In this document: positions 7,001 to 42,209 of the stretch, in pieces
Position numbering within the stretch: position 1 is the stretch's first letter
Layout: each line of letters opens with the position of its first letter
Assembly (NCBI GenBank): GCA_027488845.1
Contig: JAIYBC010000055.1
Coordinates: 77,301 to 141,300, forward strand
Direction of reading: 5' to 3'
Source: Verrucomicrobiales bacterium
Lineage (GTDB): Bacteria; Verrucomicrobiota; Verrucomicrobiia; Limisphaerales; UBA9464
Length of the DNA: 64,000 bases
The notes under the pieces: generated by a model
Seen by the model: only the letters and a program-made list of their open reading frames with translations
Databases searched by the model: none
What the model was told of the DNA's origin: nothing
Position numbers and translations under genes: made by a program

Positions 7001-7321
7001 GTCGTGATGGTGGTCTACCTCGACGAACAGGTCGAAGCCGCCCGCGCACGGCTCGGTTCGGCGTTCAACCGCGAGGACCTGCGGCAGGCGGTCAAGGACG
7101 GCGCCCGGCTGCGGCTGCGTCCGAAGGTGATGACCGTGGCCACGATCGTGGCCTCGCTCCTGCCGATCTTCTGGAGCCACCGCACCGGGGCCGAGGTCAT
7201 GCAACCGATCGCCACCCCGGTCGTCGGCGGCATGGTCAGCAGCCTCCTGCACATCCTCGTGGTCACGCCGGTGATCTTCCTCTGGCTCCGCGAGCGCGAC
7301 CTCGGCAAGGCCGGTCACTGA
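4022..7321 (+). CDS. heavy-metal efflux RND transporter, CusA/CzcA family
   Basis: About 1100 aa with the 12-TM RND architecture and motifs typical of HME-RND pumps (WAGRSPREVEDQVTFPL; GIAIAIGVLVDAAIVMTENV). Translation is coupled to the adaptor. Confidence 0.85.
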   Translation: MISALIRWSLANRFLVLCAALAVAGFGVRAVRDTPVDAIPDLSENQVIVYADWAGRSPREVEDQVTFPLSSGLRGLAGVRGVRATSMFGFSVITAIFEDSMDNYFARTRVLERLSQLTGQLPAGVVPQMGPDATGLGWVFQYHLTVDPTKAPDGGYDLGRLRAIQDWFVRFELGSVPGVAEVGSIGGFVRQYQVEASSSRLRERGLALGDVLAAVGRANLNVGGKVIEENGLELVVRGVGLVRSVDDLERIVVGSGTSAPVYLRDVATVRIGGEFRRGTLDVDGQEAVGGVVVMRNGENAREVIRRVQERIAKIRPSLPEGVGIEPFYDRSDLIDRTLDTLRHALWEEVLLVTLAHILFLWHFRSILIVTLPLPLSILVAFVLMQVFGISSNIMSLTGIAIAIGVLVDAAIVMTENVLRHCERAEAESLARGGGPLDAATRLRLTLEASVQVGRPVFFAMAIILLAFVPVFSLSGREGKLFHPLAFTKTFAMLGSTVFAVTLVPVLCSFLVRGPFHREEDNLVMRFLLRLYDPVLDAALRWRRTVLGLAGLMLAAALVVAFGLPRPLQQRVESVMPRGLASLTRGMGSEFMPPLDEGSLLFMPVLAPGTSLTQVKEILAWQDREIRQLPEVAKVGGKLGRFETATDPAPVEMIETTILLKPEWIATNRLWLGFIPVPSTVRNPEWRPGITRREIVDELSRRLSAVPGYVPGFLQPIENRLLMLSTGIRAQLGVKVLGDDLDALQRMAFEVERVVRTVPGAVGVAPSRVQGKPYLEIEVDRVRAGRFGLDVQDVLEVVETGIGGTTVGNTIEGRERYPIQVRLEASERGDIDRLGELLIPTREGAAIPLALVADIRRVPGPGEIASENGRLRVFVQANVQDRDLAGFVEEVQERLEREIVPRLGKGMTLEYSGEHENQIRAARTLRWMVPVVIGVIFVLLRMVYNSTREAAHVLLAVPFALSGGVFLQWWLGWNFSVAVWVGYIALFGTAIQTGVVMVVYLDEQVEAARARLGSAFNREDLRQAVKDGARLRLRPKVMTVATIVASLLPIFWSHRTGAEVMQPIATPVVGGMVSSLLHILVVTPVIFLWLRERDLGKAGH

Positions 7322-15237: not shown

Positions 15238-17913
15238 ATGTCCATGAAAGTCCGGATGTCGCGCTGGTCCGCCCTGCTGGCCTCGCTGCTGTCCCTGGCC
15301 GTCCTCGCGGACCAGCCCGGGGCCGCAACCAACCCTCCCGTCCACCTGGGGACATCGGACAGCGGGGTCCTGCCCTCGAAGTTCACGGCGCCCAAGACGC
15401 TGGCGCCCGAGGATTCCAACGGCGAGATCGCCAAGCTGGCCGCCCGGATGATCGAGCGCTCCCACTTCCTCCGGCGCGAGTTCGACGACGGCGTCTCCGA
15501 GCAGTTCTTCGAACGCTTCTTCGAGGCGCTCGACCCGCAGAAGCTCTATTTCCTGCAGTCCGACTACGAGGAGTTCCTCCCGCTGAAGAAGCAGCTGGAC
15601 GACCTGACGGTCCGCCGCGGCGACACGCGTCCGGCCTATGACGTCTTCAACCGCTACCTGCAGCGCATCGACCAGCAGTACGCCCTGGTGATGGAACAGC
15701 TGAAGGAGGAGCGCTTCGAGTTCGACCGCGACGTCCGGATCCTGCTGAACCGGAAGGATGCGCCGCGTCCGAAGTCGGTCGATGAGGCCCGTGGTCTTTG
15801 GAAGGAACGTCTGCGGTTCGAATACCTCTCCGAGAAGCTCAGCCGCGACTTCGACAGTCTTTCCACGAACCTGTGGACGAAGCTGACGACCGAACCCGAT
15901 CCGGAGCCCGAGGTGGAGCTCCCGGCGATCCCCGCGGCTGGCGACGCCCCGTCGACGGCCGCGACCAACAAGGTCGCCACCGCCAAGCCGGTGCCTGCCC
16001 CGGCGCCGAAGCCGTTGATGGTGGGTGGCAAGAAGGTGGCCGACCTGCATCTCGCCGGCCTGGAGAAGCGCCTCGGCGAACTGCTCAACACCAACCGGGC
16101 CGCCGAGTTCGCACGCCTCGCCGAGCAGGGCCGTTTCACCTCCGTCTCCGACGTCCGGGCCTTCGTGGAGAAGAACCTCCCCGAGGACCGGCACCAGGAC
16201 ATCGTGAAGACCCTCACCCGCCGTTACAACCGGGTGATGCGGAACCTCAAGCAGTTCGAGCCCAAGGAGGTCCTCCAGTTCTACCTCGACGCCCTCGCCC
16301 ACTCCTACGATCCGCATTCCAACTACTTCGGACCGCGTGAGGAGGACGCCTTCGCGATGTCCATGACCCTGTCGTTCGTGGGCATCGGCGCGGTCCTGAC
16401 CACCGAGGACGGCTATGCGATGATCAGCGAGATCAAGCCCGGCAGCCCGGCGGAGAAGTCCAAGTCGCTGAAGGCCGGCGACAAGATCGTCTCCGTGGCG
16501 CAGGACCGACAGCCCCCGGTCGACGTGATCGACGAGAAGCTGCAGAAGGTGGTGGAGCAGATCCGCGGGCCGAAGGGCACCAAGGTGACCCTGACCTACA
16601 TCCCGAAGGGCGCGGATCCGAGCACCCGGAAGTCGGTGACGATCACCCGGGATACCATCCCGTTGGAGGACCAGGAGGCGAAGGCGAAGCTGGTGTTGCT
16701 GCCCGGCTTGGACGGCAAGACCAACCGCATCGGCGTGATCGACCTTCCCGCCTTCTACAGCGGTGCCATCGGCGGCGGCGGCGCGACCAAGAGCCCGACC
16801 GCGGACGTGGCCAAGCTGCTCCGGAAGCTCATGTCGGAGAACGTCGACGGCGTGGTGCTCGACCTGCGTCGCAACGGCGGCGGTTCCCTCGAGGAATGCG
16901 TCAACCTCACCGGCCTCTTCATCAAGACCGGCCCGGTGGTGCAGGTCGTGAACTCCCTCGGCCAGCACCGCATCCTCGAGGACGAGGATCCGGACGTGCT
17001 CTACGAGGGACCGCTGGTGGTGTTGACCAGCCGCTTCAGCGCCTCGGCTTCCGAGATCCTTGCGGGTGCGCTTCAGGACTACGGCCGCGCGATCGTGGTG
17101 GGTGACAGCGCGACCCACGGAAAGGGAACCGTGCAGAACCTGCAGGCGCTCGATCCCTACTACCGCGGCCAGGGCAAGCCCGGCCAGGTGAAGGTGACCA
17201 TCAGCAAGTTCTACCGGCCTTCCGGTTCCTCCACGCAGCTCAAGGGCGTCGTCCCGGACATCGTCCTGCCGAGCGTGAACAACTACGCGGAGATCGGTGA
17301 ATCCGCGATGAGCAACGCGCTGCCGTGGAACACCATCAGCCCGGTGCGCTACGACCACTACACCAGGGTCCCCGCGCTGCTTCCCGAGCTGCGTCGCCGA
17401 TCGGACGAGCGGGTCGGTGCCGACCGTGACTTCTCCTACATCCGCGAGGACATCGAGCGCTTCCGCAAGCAGCTGGCCGACCGGACGGTTTCGTTGAACG
17501 AGTCGAGCCGGCTGGCCGAGATGCGGGCCGACAAGGAGCGTGCGGCCAAGCGGCGCGAGGAGATCGAATCCCGGAACGAACGGGAACCGCTCACCTACAA
17601 GCTCACCCTGAAGGACGCCGGCAAGCCGGGTCTGCCCGAGCCGGAGAACTCCAAGCCGTTGATCGCGGCGACCAAGCGCGACGAGCGGACCCTTCGCAGC
17701 GGCGCGGGCCGCGAATCCGCCTCCGCCTCGGAGAACCGCAAGAAGGAGAAGACCGCGGAAGGTGAAGCCGAAGAGGATGCCGAAGAAGAGGGCGTGGCCG
17801 CGGACGTGAACCTCCGCGAGGCCCAGCGCATCCTCATCGACTTCGTGCAGCTGTCGCGCGGCCAGAAGGGGCTCGCCGGCGCGCCGAAGACGGTCGATCC
17901 GAAGGCCAACTGA
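15238..17913 (+). CDS. carboxyl-terminal processing (tail-specific) protease, S41 family, Prc-like
   Basis: Signal peptide, a PDZ domain, the S41 catalytic region (VLTSRFSASASEILAGALQDYGRAIVVGDSATHGKGTVQ) and the Prc-type C-terminal domain. It has a long Ala/Pro-rich linker and a charged tail. The start may be 15244 rather than 15238. Confidence 0.8.
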   Translation: MSMKVRMSRWSALLASLLSLAVLADQPGAATNPPVHLGTSDSGVLPSKFTAPKTLAPEDSNGEIAKLAARMIERSHFLRREFDDGVSEQFFERFFEALDPQKLYFLQSDYEEFLPLKKQLDDLTVRRGDTRPAYDVFNRYLQRIDQQYALVMEQLKEERFEFDRDVRILLNRKDAPRPKSVDEARGLWKERLRFEYLSEKLSRDFDSLSTNLWTKLTTEPDPEPEVELPAIPAAGDAPSTAATNKVATAKPVPAPAPKPLMVGGKKVADLHLAGLEKRLGELLNTNRAAEFARLAEQGRFTSVSDVRAFVEKNLPEDRHQDIVKTLTRRYNRVMRNLKQFEPKEVLQFYLDALAHSYDPHSNYFGPREEDAFAMSMTLSFVGIGAVLTTEDGYAMISEIKPGSPAEKSKSLKAGDKIVSVAQDRQPPVDVIDEKLQKVVEQIRGPKGTKVTLTYIPKGADPSTRKSVTITRDTIPLEDQEAKAKLVLLPGLDGKTNRIGVIDLPAFYSGAIGGGGATKSPTADVAKLLRKLMSENVDGVVLDLRRNGGGSLEECVNLTGLFIKTGPVVQVVNSLGQHRILEDEDPDVLYEGPLVVLTSRFSASASEILAGALQDYGRAIVVGDSATHGKGTVQNLQALDPYYRGQGKPGQVKVTISKFYRPSGSSTQLKGVVPDIVLPSVNNYAEIGESAMSNALPWNTISPVRYDHYTRVPALLPELRRRSDERVGADRDFSYIREDIERFRKQLADRTVSLNESSRLAEMRADKERAAKRREEIESRNEREPLTYKLTLKDAGKPGLPEPENSKPLIAATKRDERTLRSGAGRESASASENRKKEKTAEGEAEEDAEEEGVAADVNLREAQRILIDFVQLSRGQKGLAGAPKTVDPKAN

Positions 17914-19613: not shown

Positions 19614-20471
19614 TCAGGCGGCGAGGGCTGCGGTCCGCCCGCGCGGCGACGGCGAGAAGTGGAGGAAGCTGTCGAGCAGCAGCTGGACGCCGAAGTTGTT
19701 CACGCCGGATCCGAAGAACACCGGGGTGAGCTTGCCGGCGAGGACCGCGGAATGGTCGAACTCCGCGCCCGCCATCTCGACCATCTCAATCTGCTCGCGG
19801 ACGGTCGCATAGGTCTGGTCGTCGAGCTTCGAGCGGACGAGGGGATCGTCGAGGCCGGTCACGTTCACCGGTGCGCGGTACATGCCGCCGACCACCCGTT
19901 CGAAGAGGTGCACCCGCTTTTCCGCCCGGTCGTAGATGCCGCGGAAGTCGGTGCCGCTGCCGAGGGGCCAGTTCATCGCGCAGGAGCGGATGCCCAGCAC
20001 GGCCTCGAGTTCGTCCATGAGCCGGATCGGATCCTGGGCGGGCCGGTCGAGCTTGTTCATGAAGGTGAAGATCGGGACGCCACGGCGGGCGCAGACCTCG
20101 AACAGCTTCCGCGTCTGCGATTCCACGCCCTTGCCGGCGTCGATCACCATGATCACCGAGTCCACCGCGGTCAGCACCCGGTAGGTGTCCTCGGAGAAGT
20201 CCTTGTGACCCGGGGTGTCGAGCAGGTTGATCCGGTAGCCGAGGTACTCGAACTGCAGCACGGTCGAACTGATCGAGATGCCGCGCTTCTTCTCCAGCTC
20301 CATCCAGTCGGAGGTGGTCGCACGCTGGTTCTTGCGGGCGGTCACCGATCCCGCGAGCTGCACCGCGCCGCCGTAGAGCAGGAGCTTCTCGGTCAGCGTG
20401 GTCTTGCCCGCGTCGGGATGGGAGATGATGGCAAACGTCCGCCGTCGCCGGATTTCTTCCTGCAAAGTCAC
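19614..20471 (-). pseudogene. prfC: truncated peptide chain release factor 3 (G domain only; C-terminal ~250 aa missing)
   Basis: The 285-aa ORF aligns from its first residues to RF3 (RRTFAIISHPDAGKTTLTEK; NLLDTPGHKDFSEDTYR; FMNKLDR; NNFGVQLLLD matching GNFGVDHMLDGLVEWAPAP). It then runs into ...SPSPRGRTAALAA-stop instead of domains II/III. No continuation exists in any frame on this strand through the 425-bp lower-GC spacer at 19190-19613. Confidence 0.6.
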
Positions 20472-21947: not shown

Positions 21948-24900
21948 TCAATGGGCGGCCAGGGCCGCACCGTCCCATCCGCCTCCCAGCGCCTTCACCA
22001 ACTGCACGGTCGCGACGCGGCGTTGGCCTTGGATCCGCGCGCTCTCCCGTCGGACGGCCAGCGCGGTGCGGTCGGCGTCGATGACCTCCAGTTGGCTCGA
22101 GGCCCCCGCGTCGTGGCGTGCCCGGGCCAGTTCCACGGCACGTCCCGCGGCCTTGTCCGCGGCCTCGGCCGCGACGGCCTGGTCCTGGAGGGATTTCAGG
22201 CCGGACAGGTTCTCCTGCACCTCGGCGAAGGCGACGAGGACCTGTTGGCGGTAGGCGCTGACCGCCTCGTCGTAGCCGGCCCGCGCTCGGGCGAGGTCGC
22301 TCCGGTTCCGGCCGCCCTGGAAGAGCGGCAGCGTGAGGGTCGGTCCGATCGCCCACGTCCGGCTGTCCCACTTGAAGAGGGTGTCCATGTCGGCGCTCAG
22401 CACCCCACCCGAGCCGGTCAGGCGGAGGGAAGGGAAGAAGGACGCCTTGGCGATTCCGATGCGGCTGTTCGCCGCGGCAAGCCGCCGCTCGGCGCGGGCG
22501 ACGTCGGGGCGTCGCTCGAGCAGGTCCGAGGGCAGGCCTGCGGGAACGGCCGGAACCTCCGGGTGGTAGTGGCCCGTGTCCGCGATGTGGAATCCCGGCG
22601 CCGGCACGCCGACCAGGACCGCGATGGCGGTTTCCAGCGAAGCGCGCGAGCGGTCGAGTCCGGCCAATTCCACCTCCGCGGAGGCCCGTTCCGTCTCCGC
22701 CCGCGCCAGGTCGAGCTCCGTGGCGGAACCGGCGTCGAGCCGTGACCGGACGATGGCCAGGGCCTCGGTGCGCAGGCGGAGCGTGTCGCGGACGATCCCC
22801 CGCTGGTTGTCGGTGCTGCGCAGGGTGAAGTAGGTCTGGGCGAGTTCCGACTGCACGGAGAGCAGCACGTTGGCGAAGTCCGCCACCCCCGCCTGCGCCT
22901 CCGACCGGGCTCCCTCGAAGGAGCGGCGGACGCGTCCCCAGAGGTCGATCTCGTAGCTGAGGTCCACGGGCACGCGCAGGGTGTTGAACGACGGCGAGCC
23001 GAAGTTGGGGAACTGGTTCGGCGAAAGCCGTTCGCGCCGCCAGGAGGGATCGAAGCTCAACGCCGGGAAGAACTCGCTGCGGGCGAGCCGGGCGTAGGCG
23101 CGGGCCTGGTCGATGCGCGCCAGCGCCCCGAGGACCTGCTGGTTGTTGGTGTTGGCGGCCGCCATGAGGCGGTCCAGCTCGGCATCGGCGAACAGCGTCC
23201 ACCAGGCGCCCTTGGGCAGCGTGTCTTTCGGTTCGCCCGCCTTCCAGGAGCCCGTGTTCTCGAAGGCGGCTGGAACGGAGTTGGTCGGACGCCGGTAATC
23301 GGGTCCGACGGTGAGCGAGCCGGCCTCGGCGCGGTCGGGGAAACCGGCAAGCAGCAGGGCCAGGGTCGTCGCGGCGGCGACGGCCTTGGCAGCGGGACCG
23401 ACCGCTGCCGATTTGCGTTGGAGCCGGGCGGTCATCTTCATGATCACCACGTAGAAGACCGGCGTCAGGAAGAGCCCGAAGAAGGTCACGCCGATCATGC
23501 CGGCGAACACGGCCACGCCCATCGCCTGGCGCATCTCCGATCCGGCACCGGTGGAGACCACCAGCGGATAGACGCCGGCGATGAAGGCGATGGAGGTCAT
23601 CAGGATCGGGCGCAGGCGGAGCTTGCAGGCCTCGAGCGCGGCCTCGACCGGTCCGAGTCCCTCGTGCTGCTTCTCGCGGGCGAACTCGACGATCAGGATC
23701 GCGTTCTTGCAGGCGAGTCCCACGAGAACGATCAGGCCGATCTGGGTGAAGATGTTGTTGTCCGAACCCTTGAGCAGCACGCCGACCATGGCGCTGAGCA
23801 GGGTCATCGGGACGATGAGGATGATCGCCAGGGGAAGGCTGAGGCTTTCGTACTGCGCGGCGAGGACGAGGAACACGAGCAGGATGCAGAGCGGGAAGAT
23901 GTAGGCCGCGGTGTTGCCGGCGATCCGCTGCTGGTAGGTGAGCTCGGTCCATTCGTAGGCCATGCCCGGGGGCAGGGACTTGCGGACGAGGTCCTCGATG
24001 AACCGTTCGGCCTGGCCGGAGCTGTATCCCGGTGCCGGCGCGCCGTTGATCTCGGCGGCGGGGTAGCCGTTGTAGCGCATGACCCGGTCGGGACCGAACG
24101 AGTCGCGGACCTTCACCAGCGTGCCGAGCGGGACCATCCGGCCCTGTTCGTTGCGGACGCGCAGGCGGCTGATGTCGTCGGCTCCGTCGCGGAACGGGGC
24201 GTCCGCCTGGGCCACGACCTGGAAGGTGCGGCCGAAGCGGTTGAAGTCGTTCACGTACAGCGAGCCGAGGTAGATCTGCATCGTCTCGAACAGCGACCCG
24301 AGCGGCACGCCGAGCGACTTGGCCTTCACGCGGTCCACGTCGAGGTCGATCTGGGGGACGTTGATCTGGTAGGTGGAATAGACGCCCTGGAGGACGTTGG
24401 TCTGGTAGGCTTGGCCGATGGCGCCCCAGGTCGCTCCGAAGAGCGCCTCGGGTCCGAGGTTGGCGCGGTCCTCGACGAACAGCTTGAAGCCGCCGCCGGT
24501 GCTGAGGCCGTTCACGGCCGGCGCGCCGATCACGATCATCCGCGCCTCCTGGATCTCGGCGAGGGCCTGGTAGAGCTTGCCGATGATGGCGTCGGCGCTC
24601 TTGTCGGGCGTCGTGCGCTTCTCGAAGTCCTCGAGCGTGATGAACGCGATGCCGGAGTTGGGGCTGGCGGTGAAGCCGTTGGGCGAGAGGCCTGGGAAGG
24701 CCACCGAGGCGGCCACGCCGGGAACCTTCAGCGCGAGGTCGCTCATGCGGCGGATCACGGCGTCGGTGCGGTCGAGCGACGCGGCGTCGGGCAGCTGGGC
24801 CACGCAGATGAGGAACTGCTTGTCCTGGTTCGGTATGAAGCCCGCGGGAACCGCCTGGAAGACGCGTCCGGTGAGGACGACGAGACCGGCGTAGACGAAG

Positions 24901-26549
24901 AGGGCCACGGCGCTGACGCGGATGACGCGGGCGACGGCGGCCGAATAGCGGCGCGAGGCCCAGTCGAAGAAGCGGTTGAACGGACGGAAGAACCAGCCGA
25001 ACACGGCGTCGAGCACGCGCGTGGGGGCGTCCTTCGGGGCGTGGTGGTCGCGGAGCAGCAGCGCGGACAGCGCGGGGGAGAGCGTCAGGGAGTTGAAGGC
25101 CGAGATCACCGTCGAGATGGCGATGGTGATGGCGAACTGCTTGTAGAACATGCCGCTGAGGCCGGAGATGAAGGCGGTCGGGATGAACACCGCGCAGAGC
25201 ACCAGGGCCGTCGCCACGATCGGACCGGTCACCTCGTTCATCGCCTTCCGCGTGGCGTCCACGGGCGAGAGGCCGAGGGCGATGTTCCGCTCGACGTTCT
25301 CCACCACCACGATGGCGTCGTCGACGACGATGCCGATGGCCAGCACCAGGCCGAAGAGCGAGAGCGCGTTGATCGTGAACCCGAGCCACGCCATCACCGC
25401 GAAGGTGCCGACCAGCGAGACCGGCACCGCCGCCAGCGGGATGATCGAGGCGCGCCAGGTCTGGAGGAACACCAGCACCACGACCACCACCAGGGCGATC
25501 GCCTCGAACAGCGTGTGGATCACGGCGTCGATGGACTTGTCCACGAAGACCGTCGGATCGTAGACGACGGCGTAGTCCAGTCCGGCCGGGAAGTTGCGCT
25601 TGAGCGTCTCCATGGCCTCGCGGACGTCGCGGGAGAGCTTGAGGGCGTTGCTGCCGGGCTGCTGGAAGACGGGGATGGCGACGGCGGACCTGTTGTTGAG
25701 CAGCGAGCGCAGGGCGAACTCGCCGGCGCCGAGCTCGATGCGGGCGACGTCGCGCAGCTGCACGGTTTCGCCGTGGGCACCGCGCTTCACGATGATGTCG
25801 CCGAACTCGGCCTCGGTCACGAGGCGGCCCCGGGTGTTGATCTGGAGTTCGAACGCGGCCGGGGAGGACACCGGCTGCTGGCCGATGGCGCCGGCGGCGA
25901 CCTGCACGTTCTGTTCGCGGATCGCGTTCACCACGTCGCCCGGCGTGAGCCCCTTGGAGGCGACCTTGTCGGGATCGAGCCACACCCGCATGGCGTAGTC
26001 GCCCGATCCGAAGATCTGCACCTGGCCGACGCCGTCGACGCGGGCCAGGACGTCCTTCACCTGGAGCGTGGCGTAGTTGCGGATGAAGATGTCGTCGTAG
26101 GAGGCGTCGGGGGAGAACAGGTGCACCACCATGGTGAGGTCCGGCGTGGACTTGATGGTGAGCACGCCGAGGCGGCGGACCTCCTCGGGCAGCTTCGGCA
26201 AGGCCTGGGAGACGCGGTTTTGGACCAGCACCTGGGCCTGGTCGATGTCGGTGCCGAGCTTGAAGGTCACCGTGAGCGTCATCACGCCGTCGCTGGTGGC
26301 CTGGGAGAAGGTGTAGAGCGAGTTCTCGACGCCGTTGAGCTGCTGTTCCAGCGGGACGGCGACGGTCTCGGAGATGGTCTTCGGATTGGCGCCGGGATAG
26401 ACGGCGCGGACGACGATCTGGGGCGGGACCACCTCGGGGTACTCGCTGATCGGCAGCCGGTACATCGAGATGAGGCCGACGATGAAGATCAGGATCGAGA
26501 GGACCCCGGCGAAGATGGGTCTCTTGATGAAGAAGTGGGAGAAGTTCAT
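21948..26549 (-). CDS. HAE1-family multidrug RND pump (AcrB-like) continuous in-frame with a NodT/OprM-family outer membrane factor
   Basis: A single stop-free 1533-aa frame. Residues about 1-1040 are a complete AcrB-like pump, starting [18 protein letters not shown] and ending at TM12 (...[18 protein letters not shown]). There is no stop, and the frame continues into [41 protein letters not shown] followed by a full outer-membrane-factor body with both repeat halves. Confidence 0.7.
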
Positions 26550-26576: not shown

Positions 26577-27752
26577 TCAGCGGGCGGGGGAATTGGTGGC
26601 CTGGACCGGGGCGACCGGTTGGCCCGGGAACTGGATGCGGAGCTGGCCGTTCACCACCACCCGGTCGGTCGGGGTGAGCCCGGAGGCGACGAGGCGCTTG
26701 CCGCCGGAGAGCGGGCCGGTCGTGACGAACTTCTTCTCCACCGTGTTGGAGGCCGAGACGGTGTAGAGGAACTTGCGGCTCTGTTCGGTTCCCAGGACGT
26801 CGTCGGGAACGAACAGCGCGGTGGTCTTCGGTCCGGAGGGAAGGCTGACGCGGGCGAACAGGCCGGGGACGAAACGCTGGTCCGGATTCGCCAGCACGGC
26901 GCGCAGCACGAGGCTTCCGGTCGAGGGATCCAGTCGGTTGTCGAGCGACTCCACCGTGCCCACGTGGGGATATCCGGTCTCGTCGGCCAGACCGACCCCG
27001 ACCTCGATCCGCCCCTTGGCGTCGACGGGCAGGACGCCGTCGCGCCGGAAACGGTTCAGGCGGAGCAACACCGACTCGTCAAGGTCGGCGTACACGTACA
27101 CCGGGTCGACCGAGACCACGGTGGTCAACAGGGTGGTGGCGCCGTCCACGCCGGAGACGTTGTTTCCGGGCGTGACCAGCGCGCGGCTGACGCGACCGTC
27201 GATCGGAGACCGGATCTCGGCGTACTCGACGTTGAGCCGGGCCGTCACCAGCGCGGCCTCGGCCACGGCGACGGAGGCCTTCGCCTCGGACAGGCGCGTG
27301 CGACGCTGGTCGGCCTCCTCCACGGAGATGGCCTTGGTCTTCAGCATCTGCTCGGCGCGCGCGGCATCGCGGTCCGCCTGCGCGGCCCGGGTCTTCGCCG
27401 ACTCCAGGTCGGCCTCGGCGCGTTGGAGGGCCGCCTGGAAGGGGCGCGGATCGATCACGAACAGGACGTCCCCCTTGCGAACCGTCTGACCGGCTTGGAA
27501 CCGCACCTCGGCGAGGAAGCCTGAGACGCGCGCCCGGATCTCCACCGAGTCCACGGCGTCGATTCGGCCCGTGAGGGTCTCGGTCGGGATGTACTCCCGT
27601 GATTCCGGGGCCGCGACCGTGACCGTGGCCGGAGGTGCTGCGGTGGGGGCCGATGCGGCCCCGGCGCCTTCCTTCGAACAACCGGCAAGCCCGATCAGGG
27701 CGGCGGTGATGGCGGTGGTGAACGGGGTTGGCAGGGGCTTGGGACGGTTCAC
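26577..27752 (-). CDS. efflux RND periplasmic adaptor subunit (AcrA-like lipoprotein)
   Basis: Lipobox LIGLAGCS, followed by coiled-coil, lipoyl and beta-barrel segments typical of membrane fusion proteins. It lies 27 nt upstream of the pump. Confidence 0.85.
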
Positions 27753-28166
27753 GGCGGAAATGATGGAAAGGGTTTCGTGAAAGGGGGCTTCAGGCGGCGA
27801 AGGCGGAGGAATCCGCCCCCAACAGTCGTTGTTGTCGCAGATGCCAACGGCGCAGGCGCAGCAGCGTCTCCTCGAACAGGGACGGGAAGACCAACTCCGG
27901 CACCTCGGTGCTCCAGGCGAGGGCTTCCGCCTCGGCCCGTGCGTGCCGCACCAGATCCTCGGGCAGCCCCGACCTCAGGGCGGGATCGCCCAAGGGGTGC
28001 AGCGCAAACGCCCTCGGACGACGCGATGACGGCACTTTCGGAAGGGAACGGAACGGGACCATGGACTGCAGGAGATTCGAGGTGGAGAACGTTGTTAACT
28101 GACTGGTCAACATCCTATCACCCAAATTTGCTCCCGCAAGGGGGCGTTGGGTGAAAAGTTCGCAGC

Positions 28167-28772
28167 CTATCGGGACGGTGGAAGGATTCCGCCGAGGCGA
28201 CGAACGGATTCCTCAAGTGGATCGAGGACCGCCAGATCGTTGCGGATGCGGGCCTGCTGCAGCATGCCGATGGTCAGTGCCTGAAGGCTGGAGGCGACCT
28301 GATGCGGGTCACCCTGCGCGGCCAATCCCGACGATTGGGCCTCCCGGACGGTGGATTCCAGGTAACGGAGGTCGCGCTGGAAGATGTCCTCGCAGACATG
28401 GCGTAGCCTCTCATCGATTCCAGCCATCTCCGTTCCGATGCTGGAAATCGGGCAACCACATATCCTTCCGTACTTTGCGGCGATTTCCTGTTGGTGTTTC
28501 CGGATCAGGCCGCACCAGTCCATGAGGCGCTGGACGGGAGTGCTTTGGAGGGAAAAGACCGCGTCGTACTGGAGCTTCCATTCCTGCCATCCCGCCTCGT
28601 AGGCGGCGACCGCCAACTCGGACTTCGACGGGAAGAAGTGGTAGAAGCTGCCCTTGTTGACGCCGGCCCGTTCGCAGATCTGGTCCACGCTGACGCCCTC
28701 GAAGCTTTGGGTCCAAATGAGGTCCAATGCGGCGTCGAGCAGACGTTGTCGGGAATCGCTGGGGCGGGCCAT
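28167..28772 (-). CDS. TetR/AcrR family transcriptional regulator
   Basis: N-terminal helix-turn-helix (FEGVSVDQICERAGVNKGSFYHFFPSKSEL) and a C-terminal ligand domain. It is upstream of, and co-oriented with, the adaptor and pump. Confidence 0.85.
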   Translation of the reverse strand: MARPSDSRQRLLDAALDLIWTQSFEGVSVDQICERAGVNKGSFYHFFPSKSELAVAAYEAGWQEWKLQYDAVFSLQSTPVQRLMDWCGLIRKHQQEIAAKYGRICGCPISSIGTEMAGIDERLRHVCEDIFQRDLRYLESTVREAQSSGLAAQGDPHQVASSLQALTIGMLQQARIRNDLAVLDPLEESVRRLGGILPPSR

Positions 28773-30424: not shown

Positions 30425-30829
30425 GGGATCGGCTTGGGATCCTGTGGACCGACGGCGCCACGGCCAAGCGAGGAATGGGTGGAATTCCGCGGAAACCGGG
30501 CGTCCTCGGCGATGTTGACACCGCGGGGCCGGGGTGACACTTGTCGGCGGTCGGTAGCAGCCTAAGTCATCCGCCTTCCTGCGGAGTGACGCGGGGGAAC
30601 CAACTTCCGCGGAGCGATCCGCGGACGGGGCGAACGGCACCGGGCAACCGGGGCCAAGGTCACTTCCAAGACCAAGCCCGTCAGCTAACCCCGTCGGCAA
30701 CTGGAAGGGCGAACCTCTAGCCCCGCCGCGTGGCGGGGATCCACGTTCACCCCGTTAGAAACCGCATGGCGGCCTCGTGCCGTCGTGCCCCGGTCCGACG
30801 CGCCCCGGCGTGGCGGACCTCTGACTGCC

Positions 30830-31106: not shown

Positions 31107-32894
31107 ATGACCGCTGTCATTTCCGTCGCGGGTGCCGCCATCACGGCAGGCTGGATCCTGCTGGGCTTGCTCGTCCTCTACTGGCTCCTCGGCCTGGTCC
31201 TCATCGACGAGCGCCAGGTGGGCGTCGTCGTGAAGCGCTTCGCCTCGAAGTCCCTCCAGCCCGGACGCCTCGTCGCCCTCGACGGGGAGGCCGGCTACCA
31301 GGCGGACACGTTGGCTCCGGGCCTCCATTTCGGCTACTGGCGCTGGCAGTACCAGATCCTGAAGGTGCCCGTCACCGAGGTCGCCCCGGGCGGGATCGCG
31401 CTCGTGGTGGCCGCGGACGGCGCCCCCATCCCGCCCGAACGGATCCTCGGCCAGGTGGTGGACTGCGACGACTTCCAGGATGCCCGGAAGTTCCTTGTGA
31501 ATGGCGGTGAACGCGGGCGTCAGCTCGGCTTGATCACGGCCGGCACCTACCGCATCAACACGGCGCTGTTCACGGTGATCACCGCGATCCAGGCGCCTTC
31601 CCACGGCATGAGCCCGGGCGCCTTGTTCGTCCAGCGGGTGGAGCCGGACATGGTGGGCATCGTCACCACGCTGGACGGTCGCCCCATCGATCCGGGCGAG
31701 ATCGCCGGCCCCGTGGTGGCCAACCATGACAACTTCCAGAACGCCCAGGCGTTTCTCGATGGCGGCGGACGTCGCGGCCTCCAGGAGCAGGTGCTTCTCA
31801 GCGGCAGCTGGAACCTCAACCCGTGGTTCGCCCAGGTGGAGCAGGTGCGCATGGTGGAGGTGCCCATCGGGTCGGTCGGCGTGGTGATCTCCTACGTCGG
31901 CGCGGCGCATGTCGACGTCAGCGGCACCGACTTCAAGCACGGCGACCTGGTCAACGTGGGCCACAAGGGCGTGTGGGTTTCGCCGCTCTATCCGGGACGC
32001 CATCCGCTGAACACGCACATCATGAAGGTGGAGCTGGTGCCCACCACCAACATCGTCCTGAACTGGGCCTCGCGGACGGAGTCGCACCACTACGACGCCA
32101 AGCTCTCGTCGATCACCGTGCGGTCCTGCGACGGCTTCGCCTTCAACCTCGACGTCTCGCAGATCATCCATGTCGGGGCGCTCGACGCTCCCAAGGTGAT
32201 CTCGCGGGTGGGCTCGATGCAGAACCTGGTGGACCACGTCCTGCAGCCGATCGTGGGCAACTACTTCCGCAACTCCGCCCAGGACTACACCGTGCTCGAC
32301 TTCCTCGGCGCCCGCAGCCAGCGGCAGGTCGAGGCGGCCTCGCACATCCGCACGGCGTTGGCGGCCTACGACGTCCAGGCGATCGACACGCTGATCGGCG
32401 ACATCAACCCGCCGGGCGAGCTGATGCAGACCCAGACCGACCGCAAGATCGCCGAGGAACAGCGCAAGACCTACGAGGTGCAGGAGGCCGCCCAGGTGCA
32501 ACGCCAGCAGTTGGTGCGGCAGACCTCGATGGCGGACATCCAGCAGCAGGTGGTCGGTGCGGAGCAGGGGGTGAACATCGCCGAGCTGAAGTCCAACGCG
32601 CACATCAAGCAGGCCACCGGCGAAGCCGAGGCGATCCGCCTCCGTTCGATCGGCGAGGCCGAGGCCATCCGGGCGACCGGTTCGGCCAAGGCCGAGGCGT
32701 ATCGGTCGGGCGTGGAGGCCCTGGGCGCCCAAGGCTACACCCTGATGCAGATGATGCAGATCGTCGGCGAGCGGAACGTGCGGATCGTCCCGGATGTCGC
32801 CGTGACCGGCGCCGGCGGGCAGGCCGGCCTGGTGGAAGGCCTGCTCGGCACGCTGCTGCGGAAGGAAACCGTCGCCATCGCGTCCAAGGCGTGA
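31107..32894 (+). CDS. flotillin-like SPFH/band-7 family protein
   Basis: An N-terminal TM anchor, an SPFH domain, and a long Ala/Glu/Gln-rich coiled-coil C-terminus (EAEAIRLRSIGEAEAIRATGSAKAEAYRSG). Confidence 0.85.
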   Translation: MTAVISVAGAAITAGWILLGLLVLYWLLGLVLIDERQVGVVVKRFASKSLQPGRLVALDGEAGYQADTLAPGLHFGYWRWQYQILKVPVTEVAPGGIALVVAADGAPIPPERILGQVVDCDDFQDARKFLVNGGERGRQLGLITAGTYRINTALFTVITAIQAPSHGMSPGALFVQRVEPDMVGIVTTLDGRPIDPGEIAGPVVANHDNFQNAQAFLDGGGRRGLQEQVLLSGSWNLNPWFAQVEQVRMVEVPIGSVGVVISYVGAAHVDVSGTDFKHGDLVNVGHKGVWVSPLYPGRHPLNTHIMKVELVPTTNIVLNWASRTESHHYDAKLSSITVRSCDGFAFNLDVSQIIHVGALDAPKVISRVGSMQNLVDHVLQPIVGNYFRNSAQDYTVLDFLGARSQRQVEAASHIRTALAAYDVQAIDTLIGDINPPGELMQTQTDRKIAEEQRKTYEVQEAAQVQRQQLVRQTSMADIQQQVVGAEQGVNIAELKSNAHIKQATGEAEAIRLRSIGEAEAIRATGSAKAEAYRSGVEALGAQGYTLMQMMQIVGERNVRIVPDVAVTGAGGQAGLVEGLLGTLLRKETVAIASKA

Positions 32895-37520: not shown

Positions 37521-38243
37521 TCAACCGCCGCCGCGTCTCCGAAGCCGGTTCCATCCCGCGCAGGCCGCGACGGCCACGATGGCGGTCCAAGTCGAGGACT
37601 CCGGCACGGCCGTCGCGCCCGAAAGGGTCAACGACCAGCTTTCCAGTCGCATCTGTCCGCCCAATTCGAGGTCCGCCACGTTCAGCCGCCACAGACCGTT
37701 TCCGTCCTGTCCGTGGAAGACCGCCAAGGACAAGGGCCGTTGGGTGTCGGCCGGCTGCACCCGGCCATCCGGTTGGAAGGCTCCGGCGAGGATCCCATCC
37801 AGCAGGGTCGCCCCGTGGATGTCCCCTCCCACGGCGTCGTCGGCGAGGGTCACATCCCAGCCGTTGTAGCCGTGGCCGATCGGATCCCCGAGGGAGATGC
37901 CCACGCCGTTGATCAGGTTCGCCGTCCGGAGCTCGGTGGATCCAGCCACGTCGAGCACCTGCGACAACGAGACGAACATCTCGCTGGCGAAACCGCCCAC
38001 CCCGTCCACGCCGCGTAGCACCAGACCGACCTCGACTCTGGATACGGACCGGATCGACGAGTCGACAACCTCGATGTCGAAACCCACCGGTACCGGTTGG
38101 TCGTCGGCGAGCGTGTAGCCGATGGACTGGAAGCGTGACGCCTCGGAGACGAAGTCCGCCCAGGCGGAGCCGCTGACGAGCAGGGCCGCTCCCAGGGTTG
38201 GTGCGAATCGGGAGAACCGGGGACAGAAAGGGAAGGGCTTCAT
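37521..38243 (-). CDS. PEP-CTERM sorting-domain protein with a proprotein-convertase P-domain-like beta-sandwich
   Basis: A signal peptide and a C-terminal VPESSTWTAIVAVAACAGWNRLRRR, which has the PEP motif, a TM helix and an Arg cluster. Its start overlaps the upstream gene's stop (38240-38243). Confidence 0.75.
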   Translation of the reverse strand: MKPFPFCPRFSRFAPTLGAALLVSGSAWADFVSEASRFQSIGYTLADDQPVPVGFDIEVVDSSIRSVSRVEVGLVLRGVDGVGGFASEMFVSLSQVLDVAGSTELRTANLINGVGISLGDPIGHGYNGWDVTLADDAVGGDIHGATLLDGILAGAFQPDGRVQPADTQRPLSLAVFHGQDGNGLWRLNVADLELGGQMRLESWSLTLSGATAVPESSTWTAIVAVAACAGWNRLRRRGGG

Positions 38244-39025
38244 GGCTGGGATACGGCGCGGTAGAGGCGCATCGGGGAGGTGGTTGTGGGATCAACCTGA
38301 CGGAAGACGCCGTTGGTTCCCGCGGTTGTCGAACCGGGAAGGTTGCTCCAGACGCGGGGAGGCAGGAGGTCGTCGGTGAACTGGACCCGGTAGGTCCGGT
38401 ACGGCACGCCGATGAAGAGGATCTCGATCTCGGCTCCGGTGTGCCGGAGTCGCAGCGCGTTCGGGGCGGACTCGGGCTCGCCGGGAACGGAGAACCTCAG
38501 CCGGACGGTGCCGAATGCCCGGTGCGAGGAACCGGCTTGGCCGTCGGAGACGACATACCGGAACTCGTCGTCGCCGGGAGGACCCGCAGGCGGTTGGTAC
38601 ACCAGCCACGAACCGACCCGGGCGATTGACCCGCCGCGTTCGGTGGTGTTCGACCAGCCTTCGAGGATCAACCCGTAGCCCAACAGCGAGCGGTCGTCGG
38701 CCACGAGCGAGGCCAACGGGATCTTCACGGAACGGCCCGCCTGGAACTCCGCGACGTCCTCGGTCGGCGCGACCACCGATCTCAACGTGAGGACGTTCCA
38801 GAAGCCGGAGTGCAGGAGGAACCCGGACGTGGAGCGGGTCGACGTGCCCGCGACCGCCTGGCCCACGCTGCCCGAGAGGGCGAAGCAGGAACCGGAGGCC
38901 GAGGCGGAACCGTGGAAGGAGCCCCGCACGAGGCCGAACTCCGCGCGCAGACGCGAGGCGGCGGGCACCAGCGACAGGCCGACGCCGAGGGCGTAGGCGC
39001 AGGAACGGAATCGGGAGGTCTTCAT
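38240..39025 (-). CDS. hypothetical secreted protein
   Basis: Start at MKTSRFRSCAYALGVGLSLVPAAS (signal peptide); the ORF-track upstream extension is unlikely to be genic. It is 22 nt downstream of the tail-fiber-like gene, and its stop overlaps the next gene's start. Confidence 0.55.
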   Translation of the reverse strand: MKTSRFRSCAYALGVGLSLVPAASRLRAEFGLVRGSFHGSASASGSCFALSGSVGQAVAGTSTRSTSGFLLHSGFWNVLTLRSVVAPTEDVAEFQAGRSVKIPLASLVADDRSLLGYGLILEGWSNTTERGGSIARVGSWLVYQPPAGPPGDDEFRYVVSDGQAGSSHRAFGTVRLRFSVPGEPESAPNALRLRHTGAEIEILFIGVPYRTYRVQFTDDLLPPRVWSNLPGSTTAGTNGVFRQVDPTTTSPMRLYRAVSQP

Positions 39026-39047
39026 CGCGGTGTTGGAACCTTCCGGA

Positions 39048-42000
39048 TCAGGGACGTGCGGCGCCGGCGCGTTGGACGAGCTGCTCGACCAGGCCGCGGA
39101 GCGATTCGAGATCCCGGCGGAGAGCGCGGTTTTCGGCCTGTTCGATCTCCAGCGCCTCAGCCAGTTCACGGGTGCGGTGATGCAGGCCCTGGATCGCGGC
39201 CAGCGCGACCCCGTCTGCGTCGACCGTGGCGATCGAGCGGTCGGAGGCGCCGAGTCCAAACGCCGCGTGGAAGTCCTGTGCCATCGGGCCGAGGTGCGGC
39301 GTCGCCGACGGGTCGTTCGTGTAGTGCCAGGTCTGGACCGAAAGTGCGGCCACCTTCTCCAGCACCGCCGCGACGTCCACGTCGGCGAACCCGGCCTTCT
39401 TGTTCCGGTCGCTCAGGGTGACAAAGGAGGTCGCGGCGACATGCCCCGCATTCTCGATGGCGACGACCCAGTCCGTCGCGTTCCCGAAGCGGGCCAGGCG
39501 GCCGCTGTCCGCCGAGACATTCAGGGCGCCGTCGTTCGAGGTCCCGCGGCCGTTGATCCGGAGCGCCGGGCTCGCGTTCGAGTTGGTGCTCATGTTCTCG
39601 ATGTGCACCACCGCCGACCGATAGTCCCCCGTCCGGCTCCCGACGAGGTTCGCAGCCCGGTTGCCTGCCGGCGCAGCCACGGAGAGGGTCCCTCCGGCGG
39701 TCAGTGCATTGCTGACAGTCAATGTCGCCGGGATGGTCACATCGCCCCCGAAGACGCTGTCGGCGTTCTGGTCCCATCGCAGGGCGAAGGTCTGTCCGAA
39801 GCGGGTCGATCCCAGGGCGCCACCGCTGTAGCCGTAGAGGACGGGGCCATCCACGGCCACACCGGCGAACGGACGTTGGGTCCCTCCGAACCAGCCGAGT
39901 CCGTGGTTGGTGTCCGAGCCGGCCCTCAGGAACAGGTCGTGGTCGGAAAGCCGCAGGTCGGAGGCAAGGACGGGGTTGCCGTCCAGGCGCGCCAGGTTGG
40001 CTCCGAGCCGAGCGTCGGGCACGGTGCCGGAGGCGAGTTGGGAGGCATTGAGGTCGGTCAGCAGGGATCCGGATCCCCTGAGGTCCGTGGCGTCGACAAA
40101 TCCTCCGATGATGTGCTCCGCTTGGACTGAGTCGGCATAGACCCCCCCATTGGAAACCATGAGCGATCCTCTTGGCAGTCTTACGTCTCCATCCGACTCC
40201 CAAGAGAGCGCGATTTGTTGACCTTCCGAAGTCGAGCCCAAGGCGCCACCTTCGTTGCCGTAGAGCACCGGGCCGTCCACGGCGACCCCTGCGAAGGTGC
40301 GCGGGGCACCACCGAACCATCCGAGCCCGTGGGCCTTGTCGGTCCCACCTCGCAGGAGCAGGTCCTTGTCGGAGAGACGGATGTCGGAGGAGAACACGGG
40401 AAAGCCATCCAGGCGCGGGATGTTCGTCCCGATCCGTGCGTCGGGAAGGATGCCCGAGGTGATTTTGGCGCCATCCAGTCCCGGGATCCGGGAATCGGAA
40501 AGGGTGCCACTCACGATCTTTGACGCATCCAGGTCCGGGATTCGGGCCGCATTGAAGACGCCCGCAACGACCTTGGATGCATTCAGGTCCGGAACCCGGT
40601 CGGTATCGAAGATGCCGGTCGTGATCTTGGACGCGTCGAGGTCCGGGATCCGCGCTGAAGCGAAGACTCCGGAGCCGACGTTCGAAGCGACGAGGTTGGT
40701 GATCTCAGAACCGTCTCCCAGGAATCGTTGCGCACTGACCCCGCCCTGGAAGTTCGCAGTGCTATCGAGCCTTGCGAAGCGAGCCTCTCCATCCGATTCT
40801 GAGACGATGACTAGATGATCTCCGGCCAGTCCACCGGATATCGAGATCACTTTACCCTGTATGCTGGGCATCTGAAAATTACCCCATCCCACTACCTCGC
40901 CATTGCTTTTTAATGCAACACACCCACTCCTAAACGACTCAATTGCAACAACATTGCTCAAGCCGATAGGTACATTCAGGTGCGGTATAATTGGAATGAA
41001 TTGGGAATTTATGTAGCGGGTCGCTCGAACGGTTCCGTCTGGCAAAAGGTATACAAAGGCCCCTGAATTCATTCTGCAGTCGACGATGTTTCGCTGGAAC
41101 ACGTTCGAAAAGCTTGGTTCTTCAAGGGTTCCGTGCGAATTATAGCCAACTCGAGCACCGGATCTGGAGATGATGATGTATTCCTCCATTGAAAAGGTTG
41201 CTATATTTGTATAGCTGTTTGATTGGAATCCCCAAGTCCGTAGGGTTCCGTCTCTGGTAAGTGCTCCTGATCTCCTGTAACCAGCCGCAATCTTCACGAT
41301 GTTGGAAAGCCCCGATGGTATGTTACATTGACCTACACTGTTATCACCCCAGGCGAGGAGTTGGCCTTCCTTGTCCAAGGCCAAGATGTGATCGACACCC
41401 ACTGCCACATCCACGATTCCGGTCTTGGTGGAGGCGATCGAAAGGAGGCCGTTTTGATCCGGACTTCCTGGAATCAGCCGACCATCTCGAGTCAAACCAA
41501 CGATGACCTCGCCCACGGCCACCTTGGTGATTTCCCGTTCTGTGGTTGGGAATCCTAGGAAACTTGGGTAGTGAAAGTTTGAGATCACCTGAACCGACGC
41601 GGATCGGTTTCGGAGCCCTGCTGCGGCGATATTGGTCAGTCCAGCCCCGTTTCCAGTGAACACCCCTCCTGTGATCCGGCTCGCATCCAGTTCCGGCACC
41701 TGTGCGGCCGCCAGAACCCCGGTGACCTGGGATGCCGAAACCGTCCCGCTGAGGGCCGACGCCGTGGCGGCGGTCGTGGCCGTCGACGCGGACTGGGCGC
41801 TGATCGCGGTCGCTGCATGGATTGCATACGGCGTCGGGGACACCGGTTGGCGGGTCGGCAGCGTCTCGTACGCCAATGCGCCGTTGGTTCGGATCCCGAT
41901 CTCAAGCCACCGGGCGGCTCCGTTGAACCGGGGGCCGAAGTCCAGGGTCGCCTGGAAGAGGCCGTTGGTGAGGGTCAGGGCCGCGGCGTCCACCACGGGT

Positions 42001-42209
42001 CCCTGCTGTTCGCCGGCGGTCGCCGCGTCCCAAAGTGTGAAACGCAGGTCGTACACCCCGTTTGCGGCGGAGGGGCCGTCGGTGAGTTGGCCTTGAAAGC
42101 CGAAAGCCGTGCCCTGGGCGGCTGCCCGCACAAGGCCCAGGGCGAGGGCGACGAGAAGTATCCAGTTCCGCGATCCAGACTTGGGGCGGAGGAAAAGTGG
42201 CCGGTGCAT
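39048..42209 (-). CDS. secreted tail-fiber-domain protein: RCC1-like beta-propeller, IPDLDASKI-type 14-aa repeats, duplicated ~145-aa module, C-terminal peptidase-S74 intramolecular chaperone domain
   Basis: Signal peptide MHRPLFLRPKSGSRNWILLVALALG. RCC1-like blades include LAWGDNSVGQCNIPSGLSNIVKIAAGYRRSGALTRDGTLRTWG. Five tandem repeats follow the pattern RIPDLDASKI(V/T)SG. Two copies of SD(I/L)RLSD.DL.LR.G.D..HGLGWFGG..R.FAGVAVDGPVLYG..GGALGST are present. The C-terminal SDRNKKAGFADVDVAAVLEKVAALSVQTWHYTNDPSATPHLGPMAQDF...IQGL matches the auto-cleaving chaperone domain of phage tail spikes and fibres. Confidence 0.8.
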   Translation of the reverse strand: MHRPLFLRPKSGSRNWILLVALALGLVRAAAQGTAFGFQGQLTDGPSAANGVYDLRFTLWDAATAGEQQGPVVDAAALTLTNGLFQATLDFGPRFNGAARWLEIGIRTNGALAYETLPTRQPVSPTPYAIHAATAISAQSASTATTAATASALSGTVSASQVTGVLAAAQVPELDASRITGGVFTGNGAGLTNIAAAGLRNRSASVQVISNFHYPSFLGFPTTEREITKVAVGEVIVGLTRDGRLIPGSPDQNGLLSIASTKTGIVDVAVGVDHILALDKEGQLLAWGDNSVGQCNIPSGLSNIVKIAAGYRRSGALTRDGTLRTWGFQSNSYTNIATFSMEEYIIISRSGARVGYNSHGTLEEPSFSNVFQRNIVDCRMNSGAFVYLLPDGTVRATRYINSQFIPIIPHLNVPIGLSNVVAIESFRSGCVALKSNGEVVGWGNFQMPSIQGKVISISGGLAGDHLVIVSESDGEARFARLDSTANFQGGVSAQRFLGDGSEITNLVASNVGSGVFASARIPDLDASKITTGIFDTDRVPDLNASKVVAGVFNAARIPDLDASKIVSGTLSDSRIPGLDGAKITSGILPDARIGTNIPRLDGFPVFSSDIRLSDKDLLLRGGTDKAHGLGWFGGAPRTFAGVAVDGPVLYGNEGGALGSTSEGQQIALSWESDGDVRLPRGSLMVSNGGVYADSVQAEHIIGGFVDATDLRGSGSLLTDLNASQLASGTVPDARLGANLARLDGNPVLASDLRLSDHDLFLRAGSDTNHGLGWFGGTQRPFAGVAVDGPVLYGYSGGALGSTRFGQTFALRWDQNADSVFGGDVTIPATLTVSNALTAGGTLSVAAPAGNRAANLVGSRTGDYRSAVVHIENMSTNSNASPALRINGRGTSNDGALNVSADSGRLARFGNATDWVVAIENAGHVAATSFVTLSDRNKKAGFADVDVAAVLEKVAALSVQTWHYTNDPSATPHLGPMAQDFHAAFGLGASDRSIATVDADGVALAAIQGLHHRTRELAEALEIEQAENRALRRDLESLRGLVEQLVQRAGAARP

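Follow-up and report, generated by a model that had tools for sequence, protein, structure and literature searches.

How can an efflux pump of the inner membrane and a channel of the outer membrane be encoded as one uninterrupted chain? The question is raised by an open reading frame (ORF) at 21948..26549 on the minus strand of the window, that is, the whole 64,000-nt stretch analysed here (assembly GCA_027488845.1, contig JAIYBC010000055.1, positions 77,301 to 141,300), which comes from a high-GC Verrucomicrobium. Gram-negative bacteria owe their intrinsic drug efflux mainly to tripartite pumps of the resistance-nodulation-division (RND) family, which reviews describe as three separate proteins. 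In this ORF, pump and outer-membrane factor (OMF) form a single frame of 1533 aa, which begins with ATG and ends with a stop codon at 21948-21950. A first-pass annotation, made from the letters alone, had reported this frame without stating its strand; the ORF list and the translation bear it out, and the protein strings that were quoted are all present. The answer favoured here, with a probability of roughly 0.7, is that the ORF is a maintained pump-OMF fusion within an operon that also encodes a TetR regulator, a small ORF and an adaptor, and that its product would be a polyprotein with an internal signal peptide, at which signal peptidase I would cut.

The pump half (aa 1-1040; 23430..26549, minus strand) is, as judged from its sequence, a complete HAE1 RND permease of the MexF/OqxB/CeoB lineage. 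The ACR_tran domain (PF00873) spans aa 3-1036 and covers profile positions 1-1020 of 1021. The best family model is RND_permease_1 (NF000282; 1433 bits, cutoff 1250), followed by OqxB, and TIGR00915 scores 1147.6 bits against a cutoff of 940. Hydropathy analysis gives 12 strong transmembrane (TM) peaks, with 19-aa means of 1.7-2.7. The proton-relay motifs are in place at aa 408 (VVDDA), 947 and 977, and we take them to be the equivalents of AcrB D407, D408, K940, R971 and T978. Chains from the PDB align over aa 1 to ~1040; no PDB chain covers both halves, and all RND chains among the matches listed have at most 1069 aa. An RND pump usually ends in a short cytoplasmic tail after TM12; here 493 further residues follow.

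Those residues contain an OMF that is complete in sequence and fold and lacks the defining lipoprotein feature of its family. The NodT model TIGR01845 spans aa 1081-1524, reaching from profile position 12 to 460 of 460 with 375.6 bits against a cutoff of 210, and two OEP repeats are present, so that the earlier description of a full NodT/OprM-type protein with both repeats holds. Residues 3-454 of OprJ align with this half, which also keeps the conserved N-terminal GPDY-x-x-P motif. An AlphaFold2 model of aa 1001-1533, built on a 63-sequence alignment, has a mean predicted local distance difference test score (pLDDT) of 83, with high confidence in the OMF core. Foldseek matches the OMF model to OprN, OprJ and OprM with target-normalised TM-scores of 0.80-0.85. 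NodT-type OMFs are encoded separately, each with a start codon of its own, and their mature protein begins with an acylated Cys. In the fused ORF the OMF has no gene of its own, and aa 1041-1100 contain no Cys.

The fusion is real and selectively maintained, which excludes both an assembly error and recent pseudogenisation, the two alternatives to a genuine fusion that had initially been offered. The exact 1533-aa protein is already on record from a 275-kb NCBI contig, and six separate assemblies contribute full-length 1533-aa members, all with an identical joint, to its 90% cluster. The nearest genome match is locus L003, from a metagenome-assembled genome (MAG) of an uncultured Verrucomicrobia member, which shares 96% aa identity without a single gap at a dS of 0.255 (259 synonymous differences). 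The enolase cluster likewise has members that carry the label Verrucomicrobiota. Purifying selection acts on both halves of the fused ORF, as the comparison with L003 shows: the pump has a dN/dS of 0.03 and the OMF one of 0.10. Within the joint the ratio rises to 0.27 over the h- and c-regions and to 0.77 over the basic tail, values which suggest that the joint is free to vary, yet it never leaves the frame. GC content at third codon positions is 0.94 across the ORF and stays at 0.75-1.0 through the joint, which identifies this frame as the true coding frame. Other long ORFs that shadow the locus in other frames have no domains and are an effect of the high GC content.

The same picture emerges from a wider survey. 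One genome per GTDB species was scanned with a 269-aa junction query, and the frame was then followed in the DNA. Complete open frames across the junction, roughly 1430-1610 aa long, were found at 23 loci, while five further loci are in frame and ended by contig edges, two are in frame in long-read contigs, and 19 have a stop and are thus separate genes. The fused loci come mostly from short-read Verrucomicrobia MAGs (Pedosphaera, Limisphaerales, subdivision 3) produced by different assemblers, and the fusion is conserved down to ~55% junction identity. With six assemblies and 30 other species-level genomes, the continuity of the frame exceeds chance. The relatives thus do not uniformly have two genes with a junction identical but for a stop codon, which the first-pass annotation had named as the mark of an artefact. 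A HMMER search of 1.84 billion cluster representatives extends the range further, in that the junction is spanned by ~30 of the best 150 matches (50% clusters), some of them full-length proteins of 1484-1541 aa that belong to other phyla, such as Acidobacteriota (Bryobacteraceae). A word-index protein search, whose queries were the junction and a profile of nine junction sequences, returned in-frame junctions only in proteins of <500 aa, and many of its matches are frameshift-broken fragments of long-read assemblies.

The joint itself comprises 36 aa between the two halves. After the last pump residues (FYVVIMKM-T) come an n-region that forms the cytoplasmic tail (aa 1041-1055; 23385..23429), with four basic and no acidic residues; an h-region (aa 1056-1070; 23340..23384), supported by hydropathy and the AlphaFold2 model; and the c-region PDRAEA (aa 1071-1076; 23322..23339), all on the minus strand. 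The c-region has a helix-breaking Pro and Ala at both -3 and -1, and small residues at these two positions are the classical rule for signal peptidase I. A thirteenth hydropathy peak lies at aa 1049-1070 (19-aa mean 1.6) and is weaker than each of the 12 TM helices. The structural model has a helix at aa 1052-1068 followed by coil, and its only internal stretch with pLDDT below 50 (aa 1076-1081) coincides with the predicted cut. A basic n-region, an h-region of ~10-15 aa and small, uncharged residues at -3 and -1 are what is expected of a Sec signal peptide cleaved by signal peptidase I, and the joint has all of these. It departs from the pattern in its position, since a Sec signal peptide is N-terminal in its precursor, and this one starts at residue 1041, after 12 TM helices. 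Other secreted proteins encoded in the window have N-terminal signal peptides of similar appearance, for example with ADA|E or AFA|A. The joint is thus best read as the OMF's own Sec signal peptide, intact but internal, with a predicted signal-peptidase-I site at A1076|G1077 (bases 23322/23321). The predicted mature OMF (aa 1077-1533; 21951..23321, minus strand) would be an OprN/OprJ-like NodT protein of 49.4 kDa without a Cys that could be lipidated.

Comparison of fused relatives shows which features of the joint are constrained. The cytoplasmic side varies from 8 to 29 aa, with 3-6 Lys or Arg and 0-2 Asp or Glu. The periplasmic side is fixed and takes one of two forms. In the first, A-x-A is followed by ~5 residues and GPDY; in the second, a lipobox (L-x-G-C) is followed by 2-3 residues and GPDY, as in L004, L007, L009, L013, L022, L025 and all the distant fused proteins. 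Alignment A3 shows that the two forms differ by a 9-residue insertion after LLAG in the A-x-A type. Position -1 is Ala in 23 of 23 fused relatives that have no Cys (which share phylogeny and do not represent 23 independent events), -3 holds A, T, S, L, V or I, and -2 varies and often holds a charged residue. The joint in fused relatives therefore always bears one of two signal-peptidase motifs.

The absence of a lipobox Cys deserves separate attention. As had been noticed at the outset, the sequence reads LAGF rather than LAGC, and the codon of F1070 (TTC) is indeed one base from TGC. Seven close relatives have LAGF (five) or LAGV (two; the codon is GTC in L003), and none has Cys. In addition, F1070 lies 13 residues before PDY, while in OprJ and in fused relatives of the lipobox type the lipid-bearing Cys precedes that motif by 3-4 residues. 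A fresh one-base mutation of LAGC was considered and rejected on both counts. A recent loss of stop codon and lipobox does not fit either, since the fusion is old, both halves are under purifying selection and Cys is missing from all close relatives. Alignment A3 sets LLAG over lipobox positions -3 to -1, and LAGF may be the remnant of an old lipobox whose function has since moved to the AEA|G site within the 9-residue insertion. The adaptor of the same operon uses LAGC, and the organism therefore does make lipoproteins.

A plausible course of events can be proposed from this anatomy. The C-terminus of an RND pump, after TM12, is cytoplasmic. The basic tail would keep the N-side of the joint in the cytoplasm, while the 15-residue Ala/Leu h-region would insert with its N-terminus inside and its C-terminus outside, as a thirteenth span, and start translocation. 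The OMF part of ~455 residues would then be threaded through SecYEG into the periplasm, much as the two large periplasmic loops of the pump (~300 residues) are. Signal peptidase I would cut behind A-E-A, at A1076|G1077, releasing two products: a pump of 116 kDa, on whose C-terminus the signal peptide would remain as an additional helix, and a free, non-lipidated OMF of 49 kDa, which would enter the outer membrane by the normal route. Sister fusions of the lipobox type would be cut by Lgt/LspA instead. Pump and channel would be synthesised 1:1, as in the trimer:trimer complex, and the adaptor, which is present in six copies, remains a separate gene. This fixed 1:1 output is a plausible benefit of the fusion.

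Several observations weigh against this polyprotein reading. We infer the insertion of the thirteenth segment, the cleavage, the enzyme and the stoichiometric benefit, and the cut site is assigned by the -3/-1 rule and by conservation among relatives with a shared phylogeny. All fused examples are MAGs or metagenome contigs, and no isolate genome with the fusion was found among the GTDB species scan, a tblastn search of plasmids and chromids, and the protein search. That tblastn search covered 72,556 plasmids and chromids, and every match listed came in 2-3 pieces, indicating separate genes; it gave no cultured fusion. Unfused genes are intermixed with fused ones within the clade, so that fusion is not obligatory. 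Finally, lipid-free OMFs of the NodT type may fold poorly. The titles of PDB entries 4k34 and 4k7k refer to conformational changes accompanying CusC folding and transmembrane channel formation, and we take these entries to be CusC Cys1 mutants that fail to form the barrel.

Among the alternatives, the one that survives best, although it is unlikely, is internal initiation. Translation could start at M1037 or M1039 (VIMKM) and yield the OMF alone with an N-terminal signal peptide, in which case the full chain would be a by-product. Two ATG codons do stand directly before the basic tail, and what follows from there is a textbook signal peptide. The earlier statement that no ATG, GTG or TTG separates the two parts after the MKM also proved correct, there being none in frame between the second Met and the OMF core. 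However, ribosomes that translate the pump meet no stop codon, and the fused chain would be made in any case. The Met of MKM is also kept in the unfused loci L030, L031, L034, L043 and L067, and so it belongs to the pump. Furthermore, no in-frame start is conserved inside the linker (L017 has none there), and near the joint Met is absent from many of the distant fused proteins.

Somewhat less probable still is that the fusion stays covalent, with the thirteenth helix as a permanent anchor and the OMF either tethered to the inner membrane or part of a chain that spans both membranes. The uninterrupted frame is what this would predict, AlphaFold2 models the h-region as a helix, and the cleavage is predicted. 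The constraints on the joint argue otherwise. The periplasmic link has ~10 residues and a fixed length, and all variation in length is cytoplasmic, whereas a tether would need length on the periplasmic side. A strictly conserved A-x-A or L-x-G-C would be purposeless if uncleaved, and a weakly hydrophobic h-region of 15 aa resembles a signal peptide, not an anchor. Geometry points the same way. In structures of AcrAB-TolC and MexAB-OprM, the N-terminus of the OMF lies >100 Å from the inner membrane. In the fused protein there are ~5 residues from the cut site to the OMF core and ~5-10 between the h-region and the start of the structured OMF, and an uncut chain therefore could not put the barrel in the outer membrane. 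Pump and OMF are thus probably not covalently linked in the mature state. Of the initial suggestion of a genuine fusion with an extra helix, the gene fusion stands and the covalent link probably does not; the helix is more convincingly read as belonging to an internal signal peptide, whose h-region it forms and whose signal-peptidase-I site is conserved.

The remaining alternative, an artefact or a dying gene with a non-functional OMF, can largely be dismissed: long-read contigs of relatives are rich in frameshifts (including one that makes a spurious adaptor-pump fusion in L001), and one 3.9-kb contig (P0335) encodes a 96%-identical pump with its own stop, but neither outweighs the same ORF in six independent assemblies, 23 complete fusions from mostly short-read MAGs, a gapless alignment with L003, purifying selection on the OMF and the codon composition retained at the joint.

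The long-read loci call for a comment of their own. In L001, a contig of a long-read MAG, gene calling joins the adaptor to the beginning of the pump in a single 616-aa product (2141-3991), and the pump is broken into five pieces. L001 and L002 were discarded as evidence in either direction, because indel errors make adaptor and pump seem fused as well. Indels in long reads can create both false fusions and false fissions, and caution is warranted when fusions are counted from such assemblies. The contig P0335 (3924 bp, metagenome sample ERZ21844627) encodes an unfused pump of 1054 aa whose stop lies 69 nt before the contig end. Over about its first 900 residues this pump is almost identical to that of the window, with a handful of substitutions; beyond them it diverges clearly more, and its tail differs. 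Either a close relative has a recombinant allele that is unfused, or the contig is chimeric.

The polyprotein arrangement could have arisen simply. In nine unfused relatives, the OMF gene starts 1-4 codons past the pump stop and in the same frame; one stop-to-sense change would therefore fuse the two and supply the internal signal peptide ready-made. The Met of the OMF start persists in some distant fused proteins. Because a single change suffices, fusion may be recurrent, and apparently independent fusions in different phyla can be explained in this way, probably including those in Acidobacteriota and Omnitrophota. In neighbour-joining trees, which are based on simple distances and carry no support values, fused and unfused genes are intermixed, as are lipobox and A-x-A types, with the unfused L030, L031, L034, L043 and L067 among the fused Verrucomicrobial genes. 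Fusion or fission, and the change from lipobox to A-x-A, have therefore occurred more than once. The unfused OMF of L043 has a signal of the signal-peptidase-I type.

Fused proteins from other phyla include P0179 (Acidobacteriota, Bryobacteraceae), P0123, P0129, L038 (Omnitrophota) and L051 (Vicinamibacterales). They share the layout of pump, joint and OMF, with a basic tail and a hydrophobic segment, but keep L-x-G-C, which implies Lgt/LspA, and have only 32-40% junction identity to the window. In IMG they are named 'HAE1 family protein/NodT family efflux transporter outer...', and NCBI has fused proteins of this sort as RND permease subunits. Taken together, RND-OMF fusions on balance seem to form a recurrent and undescribed class of envelope polyproteins, processed by signal peptidase I in this clade and by Lgt/LspA in others, and leaving a thirteenth helix on the pump. 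If this is true, it would be routine for lipoprotein and leader peptidases to act at internal sites that follow a 12-helix protein, and gene fusion would be a natural way of fixing the stoichiometry of pump and channel.

The closest conventional systems are MexEF-OprN, CeoAB-OpcM and OqxAB, which have the same three components in the same gene order (adaptor, pump, OMF). In these, however, pump and OMF are two genes, and the OMF has its own start and a lipoprotein signal, whereas the fused operon has one ORF with an internal signal, no Cys and a TetR regulator. Matches of the tblastn search in cultured Burkholderia and Ralstonia fall on pumps labelled ceoB or adeF, with an adjoining OMF. The OMF half shares its fold and the GPDY-x-x-P motif with the NodT proteins OprM, OprN, OprJ and CusC, and differs in its A-x-A site within a 9-residue insertion and its lack of a lipobox Cys. 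It resembles TolC in that the predicted mature protein is non-lipidated.

A precedent for the proposed processing exists in the cytochrome b-c1 precursor FbcH of Bradyrhizobium japonicum, which is cut at an internal signal peptide and for which cleavage is proven. There too, a multi-span inner-membrane protein is followed in one chain by the signal peptide of its exported partner, and the chain is split after translocation into products in a 1:1 ratio. The architecture of the fused ORF and the selection on both halves would fit a polyprotein of the FbcH type. The two cases differ in that both products of FbcH stay at the inner membrane, while the fused OMF must reach the outer membrane and its cleavage is a prediction.

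The components of this operon are ordinary and such proteins are already in databases; even so, the fusion would be moderately surprising to efflux specialists. A literature search found no description of natural RND-OMF fusions, and the searchable part of a 2021 Chemical Reviews article on efflux does not mention a natural pump-channel fusion. The conserved fusion indicates that pump and channel can be synthesised as one precursor. It also suggests, by its sequence, that a NodT-type channel can dispense with the lipid anchor, and that signal peptidases may act on a signal peptide that lies behind twelve membrane helices. With matched A-x-A and lipobox variants in sister genes, these proteins offer a natural test case for internal signal-peptide processing. 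It might be speculated that the retained thirteenth helix affects pump assembly. For annotation, the consequence is that 1500-aa 'RND permeases' of this kind should be neither split as errors nor flagged as pseudogenes.

The fused gene belongs to an operon on the minus strand that is headed by a TetR-family regulator (28167..28772; Pfam TetR_N and TetR_C_13). Next comes a small conserved ORF of ~110 aa (27790..28125), whose start codon is uncertain and for which a Pfam search gave no family. Compared with the ORFs at the same position in L001 (1493-1816) and L002 (1817-2164), it shows 35-37% identity and 20 invariant columns, and all three carry the motif NEAEALAW.T..P.L.FP. Between it and the fused ORF lies the periplasmic adaptor, or membrane fusion protein (26577..27752), with a lipoprotein signal ending in LIGLAGC. 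It scores 252.7 bits with the NCBIfam model RND_mfp (cutoff 94.9), and its best named matches are MexE and OqxA. This gene order recurs in L001 and L002. A gene for an MscS-like channel lies downstream of the fused ORF. A tail-specific periplasmic protease of the Prc/Tsp (S41) type is encoded at 15238-17913 on the plus strand, 4 kb from the fused gene, and nothing ties it to processing of the fusion.

A second efflux system in the window, at 955-7321 on the plus strand, is a conventional one of three genes. It consists of an OMF (955-2268) with a signal of the signal-peptidase-I type (SIPADA|E), an adaptor with a heavy-metal-binding domain within the ORF 2172-4025, and an RND pump within the ORF 3803-7321, in which the ACR_tran match begins at aa 79. 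This genome thus has non-lipidated OMFs encoded as separate genes as well.

The window has further features of note. A c-di-AMP (ydaO/yuaA) riboswitch is predicted by Rfam at 30549-30714 on the plus strand (52.2 bits against a gathering threshold of 38), ~390 nt upstream of the gene for a 595-aa SPFH/Band-7 protein (31107-32894). A 285-aa ORF at 19614-20471 (minus strand) contains only an EF-Tu-type GTPase domain (GTP_EFTU, E = 1.4e-51), without the usual C-terminal domains. A 1053-aa protein encoded at 39048-42209 (minus strand) combines RCC1 repeats with a C-terminal Peptidase_S74 domain, the chaperone domain of endosialidases and tail spikes, and resembles a phage tail fibre; its gene is adjoined by the ORFs 37521-38243 and 38240-39259, which match no family. 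Lastly, a secreted protein of 2143 aa (57051-63482, minus strand) carries a thermolysin-like M4 peptidase together with TIG, HYR and thrombospondin-type-3 repeats.

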